Position numbers and translations under genes: made by a program | Part shown: positions 16,076-46,617 of the stretch, in pieces | Layout of the letters: the number at the start of each line of letters is the position of its first letter | How positions within the stretch are numbered: position 1 is the stretch's first letter | Assembly: GCA_014238525.1 (NCBI GenBank) | Contig: JABAAY010000002.1 | Coordinates: 1-47,121 of the forward strand | Length of the DNA stretch: 47,121 bases | Direction: 5' to 3' | From: Mycoplasmatales bacterium | GTDB lineage: Bacteria > Bacillota_I > Bacilli_A > Mycoplasmatales > JABAAY01 | The notes under the pieces: model-generated | What the model was told of the DNA's origin: nothing | Databases searched by the model: none | Seen by the model: the letters and a program-made list of their open reading frames with translations, nothing else

Positions 16076-16686
16076 TATTCTTTATTCCCTTCTGGGTTAT
16101 CGTTATTCTCTTCTTTGCCCTCTTCTTCGTCTTCTTTTTCTGTGCCATCCAAATTAATTCCATCATCGGCTGGAGCTGCGGTCGTTTGTGCTTCTTCTAA
16201 AGCAGCTTGATATGCTGCTTCTGCCATTGCTTTTTCTTCTGAAGGAAGTGGAGCTTCAATTAACTCATGCTCAAATCCTTCAACTTCTATACCCATGTTA
16301 CGAGCTGTTCCTTCAATAACTTTAATAGCGGCCTTTATATCGTTCGCATTAAGATCTACTAATTTGTATTCTGCTATTTCTGTGATTTGTTTTTTAGAAA
16401 TTTTTCCCACGTTTTCTCTTCCAGGTAAAGAGGAACCTTTCTTAACTCCTGCTGCTTTCTTTATCAATATAGATGCAGGTGTTGTTTTTAAAACAAATGA
16501 AAAACTCTTGTCTTCGTACGCAGTTATAATAACTGGGACAATGTCACCCATTCTTTCTTTTGTTTTGTCATTAAATTCAACACAAAATTGAGGCATGTTA
16601 ATGCCTAAAGATGCTAGCTCAGCACCTGGTTTTGCCTGCCCTGCGTTAAATTGTATTTTCGCTATTCTTTTTATTTTTTTAGCCAC
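16075..16686 (-). CDS. rplK: 50S ribosomal protein L11 with a ~60-aa acidic C-terminal extension (203 aa)
   Basis: I prefer the GTG at 16686, which is preceded by GGAG 7 nt upstream and gives the canonical N-terminus (M)[20 protein letters not shown]. An upstream GTG at 16719 is possible but has no Shine-Dalgarno. The L11 core ends near [12 protein letters not shown], then the frame continues through ...[18 protein letters not shown]...[19 protein letters not shown]. Confidence 0.88.
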
Positions 16687-41066: not shown

Positions 41067-42425
41067 TTAAGTTTCAATTTGAATAAAAGTATCCGTATTT
41101 GCGAAACTAAATTCCCCAGTAGCAAGAGTAAAATTAAATGTCGTACCGTCAGCGGTTGCTGATTGTCTAAAACTTACTGTTCGATCTCCACCCTCTGCCA
41201 AGGCAGTTCCACTAATTAATATATCTCTTACATCGTAATTTGTGTCGTTAGTGACGGTAACATCGTTAACTGAAAAATCAGGGTCTGTCGCTGGTGCTAT
41301 TGCAATAGTCTGAACCGCAGCTGTTTGATCATTGTTTAATAGGGATCTTAGTTGCATATTAATGGAGGTGATTATGCTTCCAATAAGAGGCGTTGCAGGA
41401 TCCGAGGAAGGGTTGTAATCATTAATAATTGTAATTTCATTTAGTATGTCGGTTTCAGGTGCAGTAATGTTGCTGATTGCCGATGACGATATAAAAGGAA
41501 TAGAAGATGTAGAAACAGTTATTGTCGGAGGAGCTAAAACATTTTCATCGTAAAAAGGAGTTAAAACTTGAAATACATTAGTATTATTGCTAATTGGAAA
41601 AGAAGCCATTCCACTAAATCCTCTTAACTCAACATCAATCGATGACTGGGAATTAAGACTGCTATCCAAAGAAACTTCATCAAACTGAAGCGAGGAAACT
41701 GATGTATTCATGGTGCTGGAAGAAGAAACAACGGTTGTAATTTCATCAACATCCATATTAAGTTGAGAAATTATTTCTGTTGCTAAAAGTCCATATTCAT
41801 TTGCGGAGTCAAATCCTCTTAAAGAGTTAACCTGTGCACTTATATATTGAGTGTATGAAGATTGCATCATATTAGTATCGGAAAGAGAGGTAGTGTTGAA
41901 ACTTATATTGTTATCTTCAACGGAGAAAGATAATTGAACAACGTAGGAATTCTCATTCCCTACATTTGTTACTACTGGACTCAGCAATCGAGGTACTGGC
42001 GCAGGACCATCCGTGGGGTTTGGAGCAATGTATCTCGCTAATAAATTAACATTTATGGAATATAAGTTAAGTGACTCGTTAATTTGAACTTGTTCAACAG
42101 AAACAGGAGGAATTTCAATAGCAGTAACGGCTAAATTTCCACTATTTCCGTCATTTGCCAGAACATTTAATTGTCCCCATATTTGTCCTGCAACTGTGTT
42201 TTCCAAATCCTGAGGAATGTTTGTGGAAGGTGAAGACGGATCAGCAGTCGGTATGAAAAGAGGTTGCTGTGGCAATAAATTGATTTGATTAACAATGGTT
42301 TGTACGGTAGGGTTTACAACGTCACCGCCACATTGTTGAGCGACAACCGCAAGAGAAATTCCTCCCCCAATAACGCTAGCCATTAATAATGATTTAATTT
42401 GATTTTTTTTGTTTAGTTTTTTCAT
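41067..42425 (-). CDS. Surface lipoprotein (452 aa)
   Basis: Signal peptide plus lipobox: MKKLNKKNQIKSLLMASVIGGGISLAVVAQQC. The mature part is Ser/Thr/Asn/Val-rich. Single uninterrupted ORF. Confidence 0.8.
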   Translation of the reverse strand: MKKLNKKNQIKSLLMASVIGGGISLAVVAQQCGGDVVNPTVQTIVNQINLLPQQPLFIPTADPSSPSTNIPQDLENTVAGQIWGQLNVLANDGNSGNLAVTAIEIPPVSVEQVQINESLNLYSINVNLLARYIAPNPTDGPAPVPRLLSPVVTNVGNENSYVVQLSFSVEDNNISFNTTSLSDTNMMQSSYTQYISAQVNSLRGFDSANEYGLLATEIISQLNMDVDEITTVVSSSSTMNTSVSSLQFDEVSLDSSLNSQSSIDVELRGFSGMASFPISNNTNVFQVLTPFYDENVLAPPTITVSTSSIPFISSSAISNITAPETDILNEITIINDYNPSSDPATPLIGSIITSINMQLRSLLNNDQTAAVQTIAIAPATDPDFSVNDVTVTNDTNYDVRDILISGTALAEGGDRTVSFRQSATADGTTFNFTLATGEFSFANTDTFIQIET

Positions 42426-42492
42426 AGTATCCTTTATATTTTATAATATTTTTTAACATGTGTTGATTTGATTATTTTTTACTTTAAGAAAA

Positions 42493-43494
42493 TTAAACAA
42501 AATTAATTTTTTTCTTTTTGGCTATTGTTTTGAACTTTAAATCAAGGTTTGTGGGACAGATTTCAGCAATATTAACTTTTTGAAGCAACACCATTATTAA
42601 CTCATCAATATTGATTTCTCTTATGCTCCCTTTGACAAGTTTGCCTTCTTTTAACATATCGTAATATACGTTTTGTTTATTTTCAATATTTATAGAAAGT
42701 TTTTTAGTTTGCTCCAAAAAATCCTGAGCATTTACTGCTTCACCAATTTGAAAAAGGGTTAAAGTACTTTTGATTTTAGGATAATAAGAAAAGTATTTGC
42801 CCTGTTCTTTTCAAGACCATTCATCAAAGATTAGTGACTCAACAGGTCTTTTTTTCTCATAAAATGGTCACACACCTTTTAAAAGAACATTTCTTTTCTC
42901 TTGTGTTATTCTCTTAATTCTTTCAAGATATAGTAGATGACTGTAGGATTTGGCCAGTGCATCATCTTCAATGGTAAAAAATTTGCGCATATGTCCAATA
43001 AAACCACTATACTCTTCGCCTACATTCTTTATCGCTTTCTCTATAACATTGATAATGGCATTAGCTTCGAAATCCAATCCTGACTCGCCAGAAATGTTTT
43101 TCCCGACTGTAAAAGTGTTAATTTTAGTTTTTATATTGTTGCCAGTGGGGTCTTTTTCAGAGTCCCTCACACAAAATATATTGCTTGTCACAAGAGTGGT
43201 TCCTTTTGCAATTTCATTGATGGTTGCATAGTAACGCAGCCATTTGTTAACTCCTTGTAAAATTTCACTAATTTCTGAATCGTATAATGTGTCAAAATTT
43301 ATGGCGCGAAAACCTGTTTTTCAATACGAATTTAGTCCTGTGCTGCTATTCGCATATAAAGGTACATGTATATATTGGGAATTTTTGTCACTAAGCAATG
43401 TTTTCTCAATGGAACGAATTATTTTACTTTTAAACAATTGTATGTCTTCAATTGTTGTATCAGTTATGTACTCAGCTGGTAATTTATTTTTCAT
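42493..43494 (-). CDS. AsnA-like (aspartate-ammonia ligase / class II aaRS-core fold) protein, highly divergent (333 aa)
   Basis: ATG at 43494 overlaps the lysS stop by 11 nt. The pieces join through TGA codons to TAA 42493. The length and order of blocks are collinear with E. coli AsnA (330 aa): VPLYANSSTGLN, EILQGVNKWLRY vs EVVHSLAKWKRQ, CVRDSEKD vs ALRPDEDR, and LIMVLLQKVNIAEI vs LTMLLLQLPHIGQV. Several catalytic motifs are not conserved. Confidence 0.45.
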
Positions 43495-44992
43495 TCTTTT
43501 TTCTTGCGTGTGGGAATAAAATCACTTCTCTAATGCTTCTTGTGTTGGTTAACAACATTACTAGTCTATCGACACCAATACCAACCCCAAAAGCAGGGGG
43601 AAGGCCGTATTCCAAGGCATTAATATAATCGCGATCCATGTCTATAGCTTCTGAATTCCCTTTGTTTTTTTCAACTATTTGTTGTTCAAATTTTTCATAT
43701 TGGATGAACGAACTATTTTGTTCACTGAAACCATTAACATATTCTCTTCCTCCCAAAAATAATTCAAACCTGTCAGTGTAATCTGGATTTTCCTTATTTT
43801 GAAGAGACAACGTGCTAACTACAGATGGTAATTGTGTTACAAAGGTAGGATCAATAATAGTGTGTTCTACTTTTTTTTCAAAAAATTCATTTTGAATGTG
43901 GCCAATAGTATTTTGATAATTTTGTAATTCCACATTGTGTTTTTTAGCCAACTCCTTTGCTTCGTTAAAAGTTTTCACCTTTTCAAAGTTGATGCCAGTA
44001 ACTTTTTCAATTAGTTCTGATTGTTTTATTCTTTTCCATGGCGTTGTTGCGTTTATTTCTAAGTCTTGGTATTTGAAAACCTTATTTCCATGAAATTTTT
44101 TAATAAGTTTTGTAAATAAATCTTCCACTAAATTCATCGCATCACTGTAATCTCCATAAGCACAGTACGCCTCTATACTGGTAAATTCAGGGTTGTGTTT
44201 AACAGAAATGCCTTCATTTCTGAATAGGCGTCCTATTTCAAAAACTTTTTCAAATCCTCCTATTAATAACCTTTTTAAATAAAGTTCTGGTGCTATTCTA
44301 AGATACAGGGACATTTTTAAAACATTGTGTTCGGTAATGAAGGGTTAGGCAGCCGCCCCACCAGCGATTGGTTGTAATATCGGTGTGTCCACTTCTAGAT
44401 AACCATCAGCAATAAAGTAGTTTCTTGCAGTCTGAATTATTTCACTTCGAGCAACAAATAATTCCTTAACACCGGGGTTTACAATTAAATCCAAGTATCT
44501 CTTACGTTGTTTTTCTTCGATATCAACTAAACCGTGATATTTATCGGGCAATGGAGAAATGCACTTTACAAGGTGGCGGAATTTAATAGCCCTAATTGAA
44601 AGTTCACCCGTGTTAGTTTTTATTATGTTGCCCTGTACTCAAATAATATCACCCAAGTCCGAATCACTAAAAATCGTAAAATCTTTATCACTTACAGCGT
44701 CTTTTCTTACGTAAATTTGAATCTGTCCTTGTTGATCTTGAATATTTAGAAATCCAGCTTTTCCTTTGGCTCTCTTTGTCATGATTCTACCAGCCAAGGA
44801 TTTAATGGGAATATTCTCTTCAGCCAATTTCTCTTTTGAATAAGAATTAAACATTTTTTTTAATTCTTCTGAATTTTCAGTTCTTTTAACAGCGTGGCCG
44901 TAGAGGTCTATATTTTGGTCACTTAAATTGTTTAATTTGTTTATTCTGTTTGTTTCTTGCTCATTGAATTTTCTATATTTTTTTAATTTCAT
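43484..44992 (-). pseudogene. lysS: Lysine--tRNA ligase (class II) interrupted by a single in-frame TAA at 44345..44347
   Basis: Three track ORFs share one frame. The junction at 44639 is TGA (Trp), but the junction at 44345..44347 is TAA, reading ...[41 protein letters not shown]. This replaces the conserved basic residue of GGAAARPF. Otherwise it is a full-length LysRS: OB domain, motif 2 FRNEG and motif 3 GIGVDRLVMLL. Confidence 0.85.
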
Positions 44993-45000
44993 GTTCTTAC

Positions 45001-46617
45001 CTAACTACTCACAATACTCACTACAGTTGTTTGTGGATTAAGAGTATTACTATCAAAGTTAATTGTTATCGTTGCGGCTCCGCTATACGATGTACTTCCA
45101 TCACTGCTTGTAATGTTAATATCTGGAATAATAACGGTTGCAGTTGTTAGATTGGATACTGACAAATCAGTTATATTTATTGGAGTAGAAAACGTTATTG
45201 TGCTAGCAGTGGTTGAATCAGAAAAAATGTTGGTTCCATTAAAAGAAGCAAATCCATCAGCCGAATTACCATTAATAAAATTCAAAATGTCTGCAGCTGT
45301 ATTGTTTAAAACATTGCCTGTAGATGAATCGTAATTCATAAGGTCATTGATGCCAGAAATTGTTCTAGACTGTATTGTTTCGGAATTAGTTATTAAATTT
45401 GAGACATTAACTATAAAACTTGCTCTCTCGGAGTCTGATATTGTTAGAGTTATTGGTTCAAAAAATCTAGTATAATTATCGATTATTTCTCCATTAGAGA
45501 AAAAATTACCCCCAACACCACTAATGGGGTTTTGAAAAACAGAAACAATGTACTCTCCATTGCTGTATCTAAAATCAGAATTTTCTATATTGTCAATTTG
45601 AAAATTTTGGATTACTGCGCCGGCAGCAGCTTGAGAATTATTAATTCCTGTAATAATTCCTTCAGCTCATGTGTTAATGGGTGGTGTGTTGGTATTGATG
45701 TTATAACCATTATTTAATGATAGTCACTCAATGCCATTTGTCTCGTTAAGTAAAACTGATTGAAATTGAGATGTAAAAGTTACCCCATCTATACCGCTGT
45801 TTTGATTTATTAATCAAGAACCGGTAGAACTAAATACGATGTTAATAATGATATTTTCATTATATTCAAAACTACTGTTAGAGCTTAGATCAGTAACGAT
45901 TTCCACCGAACTGCTGGGAATAACTATTTGTGCCGTTATGCCCGCACTTGTAAAATTAGCGTATCTGATATTGGAGCTGGTGATTGTTGGCATGGTGATA
46001 CTTGTAACAGTTTCGTCCAGTGTTAAAATATTAAAGGCTTCTATGGCTTGTCCTGCTAGTCCTGGCAGTATCGGCGTTGCAACTGAAGAATAATTGGATA
46101 GCAATTGAATGCCGCTATTTTCATTAAAAATAATATCCTCTGTATTTACAAAAGCCTCTTCGCCTATATTAATACCTGTTAATGTTAATCTCCCGTTATT
46201 GTTTAAAATCGTTATTATTAGTGAGTTTGTCACAATGTCGCCGTGCATTAAAATGGTTTGATTGTTCGTATTGTTCGCGATTCCTAAAAAATTAAATATG
46301 GTAACAATATATGTGTTGCTTGACTCATCAAGAAAAATGTTGTTGTTATTCACATCAGAAAACAGTAGTTCTCTTACTACTAACGGTTCATCTCGGTTAG
46401 AAAGTTCACCATTGATGCTATCCAGAAAAGAGGTGGCAAGTGAATTTATTTCTGAACCATCATACGAGCTTAGTTCATTGATTGCTGTGATAATCTGTGG
46501 CAAATCTACATTTTGATCTACCGTAGTACACGCTTGCGCAACAATCGGAATGGCAAGAGAGCCAGTAATTGCGGAACCTATCAGAGACTTTGAAATAATT
46601 TTTTTACCGTGTTTCAT
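45001..46617 (-). CDS. Surface lipoprotein (538 aa)
   Basis: ORFs 45814..46617 and 45001..45339 are in one frame. I translated 45340..45813 codon by codon and found only three TGA codons. Signal peptide plus lipobox: MKHGKKIISKSLIGSAITGSLAIPIVAQAC. It ends at TAG 45001. Confidence 0.75.

Follow-up and report, generated by a model that had tools for sequence, protein, structure and literature searches.

An in-frame TAA codon in the lysyl-tRNA synthetase gene of a Mycoplasmatales draft genome is private to one assembly and may be a consensus error

The lysS gene of a Mycoplasmatales bacterium, which encodes a class II lysyl-tRNA synthetase (LysRS), is interrupted by an in-frame ochre codon in the draft assembly analysed here; in two further assemblies of this organism the codon specifies lysine. 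On balance, we lean towards a consensus error of the draft assembly as the origin of the TAA. It is most probably not the working genotype of the organism, and its biological significance is most probably nil. The whole stretch of DNA that was analysed, hereafter the window, is 47,121 nucleotides long. It is contig C50 of the draft genome G000, which comprises 665,840 bases in 127 contigs (N50 12.8 kb), has an estimated completeness of 77% and reads UGA as Trp. The features discussed below are listed in Table 1.

Under genetic code 4, lysS of the window contains one TGA (Trp, codon 118) and one internal TAA (codon 216). Its score against TIGR00499 (lysS_bact) is 611.9 bits with a cut-off of 427.6, and the match is full-length over profile positions 2–494. 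The initial annotation had drawn attention to an ochre codon in a gene whose flanks are intact, in the same frame and without other lesions, and this description was borne out. The codon was read directly from the sequence, with the minus-strand context GGG GCG GCT GCC TAA CCC TTC ATT (G-A-A-A-stop-P-F-I), and the two halves of lysS cover positions 1–205 and 207–487 of the 488 positions of the NCBIfam lysS profile. Since one profile position is absent and the frame is unchanged between the halves, exactly one codon is affected. Codon 216 is indeed the conserved Lys/Arg position of GGAAA(K/R)PF, as had been noted; in an alignment of 121 homologues the column contains K (66), R (52) and S (2), and the flanks G-G-A-x-A and P-F-x-T are near-invariant. 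The profile match places the break within the catalytic core and not at a domain boundary. TAA is an ordinary terminator in this genome, the end of lysS itself included, and the first Met in the C-terminal part (ATG, 44314..44312, codon 227) lies 11 codons past the internal TAA, both in agreement with the initial annotation. The variant base is the plus-strand A at 44347, which is T in the other assemblies and gives AAA (Lys) on the coding strand.

In its two-domain layout of OB-fold and class II core, the gene is similar to ordinary bacterial class II LysRS such as 3A74/3E9H (annotated as Lysyl-tRNA synthetase) and E. coli LysU (1E1O), and the GGAAA(K/R)PF motif is common to all of them. Residues 7–499 align with LysRS chains in the PDB at E = 2e-165 to 4e-163, and the Pfam domains PF01336 and PF00152 are on record for the sibling lysS products. 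The difference from these enzymes is that the K/R codon of the motif is TAA in the window assembly alone, whereas the sibling assemblies encode an uninterrupted enzyme. Both G001, the sister species, and ENA scaffold_139 have the uninterrupted frame.

Table 1. Location of the features of lysS, of the related products and of the other lesions in the same draft genome
Feature	Location	Strand	Remarks
lysS, class II lysyl-tRNA synthetase	43484..44992	(-)	502 codons and terminal TAA; TIGR00499 match
In-frame TAA, codon 216 of lysS	44345..44347	(-)	Plus strand TTA
Linked private synonymous change, Phe218 TTC	44339	(-)	8 bases downstream of the TAA change in the coding direction
N-terminal open frame, 215 residues	44348..44992	(-)	OB-fold anticodon-binding domain and start of the catalytic core
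C-terminal part, codons 217–502	43484..44344	(-)	Profile positions 207–487 of 488, 388 bits
Exact read-through product, 502 residues, K216	ENA assembly ERZ23489137, scaffold_139 (38 kb), locus L018		
342-residue product, K216	ENA assembly ERZ26869290, ctg350333, locus L017		A5-to-A6 frameshift further on
215-residue truncated product	The window's own 47,121-base contig		On record from this contig only
rpsM (S13) frameshift	L090:4470 = G000 C116 ~12090		One-base deletion, GGAAGG to GGAGG; intact in ERZ23489137 and G001
ecfA2 (ECF-transporter ATPase) frameshift	L090:7514 = G000 C116 ~15135		One base inserted (A5 to A6); unbroken in ENA and G001
fabD frameshift	L085:9530 = G000 C61 ~10599		One-base deletion, TCAAGGG to TCAGGG; intact in ENA scaffold_59, the SRR11455659 Logan contig and G001
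cdaA-like diadenylate cyclase (DAC domain) frame change	G000 C72 ~16567-16595		T9 run; seen in comparison with G001 only

When the read-through translation was used as query in a protein search, it recovered a protein of 342 residues, 100% identical over the aligned stretch and carrying K216; the 90% cluster of this protein has three members. ERZ23489137 and ERZ26869290 are public assemblies, independent of the draft, of the organism from which the window comes, with 99.4–99.9% identical DNA. Aligned with either ENA contig over the 1509 bases of lysS, the window shows just two differing bases, 8 apart. One is T instead of A (TAA versus AAA); the other, in the codon of Phe218, is C instead of T (TTC versus TTT, synonymous), and TTT is also the codon of the sister species. 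With only these two differences and AAA in both ENA contigs, the TAA is private to the window assembly and lies on an allele otherwise near-identical to the intact ones. A comparison with other isolates had been proposed in the initial annotation, which also derived the TAA from AAA by a single A-to-T change. The comparison returned AAA and not TAA at codon 216, and the codon of G001 is AAA as well, so that a single change suffices.

Searches for further copies of the interrupted allele were negative. Exact look-ups of the truncated products (215 and 276 residues) in a public gene index returned nothing but the window's own record. Exact-pattern scans of the site, in which the variant base was set to N, gave no match in metagenome and genome collections, which may omit near-window records, and protein searches for short Logan fragments across codon 216 found none. 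The sole Logan contig touching lysS covers codons 367–502. Of the two ENA contigs, ctg350333 carries about one homopolymer indel per 600 bases, which is typical of an unpolished long-read assembly, and it folds back on itself, L017:14111-16447 being an inverted copy of window 42402-44753. Because this contig is rich in indels, its frameshifts (A5 to A6 in lysS, and those in dus and an asnA-like gene) are untrustworthy.

Other genes of G000 are broken as well. Three indels were found between the window assembly and ERZ23489137 in the stretches that were compared, which had been partly picked for known lesions and give a local lesion density that is not to be extrapolated. Each of the three breaks a housekeeping gene (rpsM, ecfA2 or fabD) in the window assembly only; on ENA scaffold_203, ecfA2 encodes an intact 402-residue product. 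An unbiased estimate for G000 is approximately 5 lesions per approximately 370 orthologues, and G001 itself shows approximately 5 frameshifts relative to G000. A cell in which the sole LysRS is truncated while S13, the ECF ATPase and FabD are frameshifted at once would not be viable, and therefore the consensus holds positions unlike the working genotype. Three of the four lesions that were checked against ENA sit 8–70 bases from private SNP clusters. Lesions near such clusters would be expected if errors survive on thin strain-variant paths; with a rough p = 0.08 by our own estimate, this association is weak and no more than suggestive.

The same comparison documents the variation between strains. 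In the five stretches that were aligned (41,544 bases in total), the window assembly and ERZ23489137 differ by 108 substitutions, of which 86 are synonymous, 20 non-synonymous, one nonsense and one intergenic. When polarised with G001, 46 synonymous, 8 non-synonymous and one nonsense change are derived in the window assembly, and 31 synonymous and 8 non-synonymous changes in the ENA assembly. Judged by this profile, the substitutions look like real strain divergence that has been filtered by selection. The SNPs are strongly clustered: dus contains 15 within 330 bases (L018:4087-4415), 14 of them synonymous, accC also has dense tracts (L085:5781-6003), and several SNP pairs are 2–14 bases apart. 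Such clusters have the look of tracts brought in by recombination from more diverged strains within the population. In the lysS region, three haplotypes are represented by the window, L017 and L018, and a Logan contig from run SRR11455659 adds a fourth lysS haplotype. These differing haplotypes indicate that the population is a strain mixture and that each assembly is a mosaic.

Two side observations belong to this variation. Of the 13 SNPs that separate the window from L018 in their 13.6-kb overlap, 6 fall in a surface lipoprotein of 538 residues (window 45001-46617). With L017 included, three haplotypes of this lipoprotein are present, and its residue 384 is Arg in the window and G001 and Gly in both ENA assemblies. 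Among the derived substitutions in the 41.5 kb, AT-to-GC transitions predominate (38 of 56 in G000 and 23 of 39 in ENA). This excess is unexpected at 33% G+C and may reflect an artefact of polarising with an outgroup at 10% divergence, or a bias associated with recombination.

A consensus error might have arisen as follows. Several closely related strains are present in the sample, and their haplotypes are combined in the assembly. Where strain variants form bubbles, an assembler can take a path of low coverage and so retain an error of a read, and the TAA, 8 bases from such a private variant, could be an error of this kind. In that case, the organism's actual lysS would encode an ordinary LysRS of class II, intact, essential and carrying Lys at residue 216. 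Between an assembly error and a rare molecule that really exists, we consider the former to be the modestly probable cause of the TAA. Two points count against it. The selection-filtered substitution profile means that the rate of random substitution errors in the window assembly cannot be high. SNP pairs 8–14 bases apart are normal in the real variation of the region, and thus the TAA/TTC pair also fits a real haplotype. We also considered the linked TTC as a means of discriminating between an error and a real mutation and rejected it, since an independent event beside a real SNP is about equally unlikely, and a double event is possible, under both. No gene-conversion donor for the TAACCCTTC patch was found elsewhere in G000.

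Consensus errors of draft metagenome-assembled genomes are familiar as pseudogene calls of the type 'internal stop' or 'frameshifted'. The lysS lesion resembles them in being isolated and private to one fragmented assembly and in affecting an essential gene, and in this assembly, too, other essential genes carry private one-base indels. It differs from the usual errors in that it is a substitution and not a homopolymer indel, and in that the other substitutions of the assembly look real.

Another explanation, which we regard as possible and distinctly less probable than not, is that the TAA belongs to a real null allele that is not fixed. A recent A-to-T change, maybe together with the neighbouring T-to-C change, would have occurred in a strain-mixed or polyploid population and been picked by the assembler by chance. 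At the same tentative level, cells with the TAA allele alone would be dead or dying, and the others would keep AAA. The documented strain diversity, with three haplotypes in the lysS region and a fourth in the Logan contig, is consistent with such an allele, and so are the closely spaced SNP pairs and tracts typical of real variation and the lack of an excess of non-synonymous changes in the window assembly. Since the TAA allele carries just one extra change, a synonymous one, it would have to be very young. However, a lethal allele should be rare and should seldom win a consensus, the TAA is reproduced in no independent assembly, and the private frameshifts in rpsM, ecfA2 and fabD point to an assembly-wide process rather than to one gene. 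There is a slim chance that the TAA allele is real in living cells, whether in polyploid heterozygotes, through sheltering by co-resident strains or by near-cognate decoding at the weak UAA-C context that would yield sufficient full-length enzyme for a very slow-growing symbiont.

The relatives of the organism bear on whether lysS could be dispensable. In all 30 relatives searched, lysS is intact, single-copy and interrupted by nothing but TGA, and a single class II lysS was counted in each of 31 genomes. No class I LysRS was found in any of the 13 genomes searched, G000 and the sister genome among them. One lysS per genome and no class I enzyme imply that the lineage depends on lysS. The sister species G001 (88% complete) has a syntenic, intact lysS of 502 residues with GCT AAA CCT at the site. 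Relative to G001, dN/dS is 0.065 for codons 1–215 and 0.054 for codons 217–502, and by this measure both halves are under strong purifying selection. The features of an established pseudogene, namely more lesions and relaxed constraint, were not seen, and an old pseudogene was rejected because lysS shows no decay beyond the TAA, its only other private change being synonymous.

A fresh, true pseudogene would require another LysRS encoded in the missing ~23% of the genome. The initial annotation had suggested looking for a second lysS or a class I lysK. G000 contains a single class II lysS, namely that of the window, its only class I matches are two weak ones below threshold, and a functional replacement was found neither in this 77%-complete assembly nor in the relatives. 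The aspS and asnS genes also have no match in G000 although they are present in every relative searched; their absence from a 77%-complete assembly means that absence from it proves little. The missing part includes core translation genes, and 16 tRNA genes were found. While this incompleteness, with the missing aspS and asnS, leaves room for a second enzyme, G001 and 29 other relatives have exactly one class II lysS, the class I enzyme is absent from the 13 genomes, and the sibling assemblies keep lysS intact. The dN/dS of approximately 0.06 on both halves indicates selection until now. A fresh pseudogene is therefore very unlikely.

It is also highly improbable that the TAA is fixed and that full-length LysRS is made by readthrough, either with a suppressor tRNA or with near-cognate tRNA-Lys, tRNA-Gln or tRNA-Tyr at UAA-C. 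UAA followed by C is a comparatively weak termination context, and this context is present here (TAA CCC), the flanks are intact in frame, and no other LysRS was found. Against this, the stop is absent from two assemblies of the same organism, from the sister species and from 30 relatives. Basal readthrough would yield only a tiny fraction of the normal amount of enzyme, and TAA terminates genes in the ordinary way, lysS among them. No UUA-anticodon (suppressor) tRNA is among the 16 tRNAs found in the incomplete G000. On the 514-base contig C24 of G000 (C24:255-341), ARAGORN predicted a tRNA of 87 bases whose anticodon has four bases ('taat') and whose anticodon stem is poor. This tRNA is not a UAA suppressor; probably it is a tRNA-Leu(UAA) that an indel, or the fold, has distorted.

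Programmed recoding, as in selenocysteine, pyrrolysine, reassigned stops or programmed readthrough, likewise places an in-frame stop in an otherwise intact essential gene. In contrast to those systems, the lysS stop is not conserved at any of the phylogenetic depths tested, the search for a dedicated tRNA was negative, and TAA serves as the ordinary terminator. In a genome-wide tblastn comparison of the open frames of G001 with G000, which covered approximately 320 long and 48 short orthologues, lysS alone has a credible interior TAA or TAG. A codon reassignment was rejected, since lysS holds the sole credible case among these approximately 370 orthologues. A second nonsense candidate on contig C62 proved to be untranslated leader upstream of the real start and not a lesion.

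Least likely of all, with hardly any chance of being right, is a split LysRS in which residues 1–215 and a product re-initiated at Met227 would assemble together. Split aminoacyl-tRNA synthetases exist in some other organisms, and an in-frame ATG does follow 11 codons after the stop; however, around Met227 the DNA does not differ from the intact alleles, no Shine-Dalgarno-like motif precedes this Met (GAACACAATGTTTTAAAAATG), the split is common to no relative, the break falls within the catalytic core, and residues 216–226 would be lost, including P, F and T (each in 120 of 121 homologues) and a position that is Glu here and His in 117 of 121.

The initial annotation had offered four options without choosing among them. 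A sequencing or assembly error and a very recent inactivating change are the two that the results favour, given AAA in the sibling assemblies and the sister species and a gene otherwise without decay. The two-fragment option found no support, the stop being not conserved, the surroundings of Met227 being those of intact alleles without a ribosome-binding site, and KPFxTxH being lost. Readthrough likewise found no support, with a stop that is conserved among neither assemblies nor relatives and no UUA-anticodon tRNA among the 16 tRNAs found.

Our analysis is a caution, in that an eye-catching ochre codon in an essential gene vanished once other public assemblies of the organism were examined. 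Other observations of broken genes from G000 need checking against the sibling assemblies before they are given a biological interpretation. If reads proved the TAA allele to be real and abundant, it would be of modest interest as a null allele that is sheltered, or read through, in a minimal genome.
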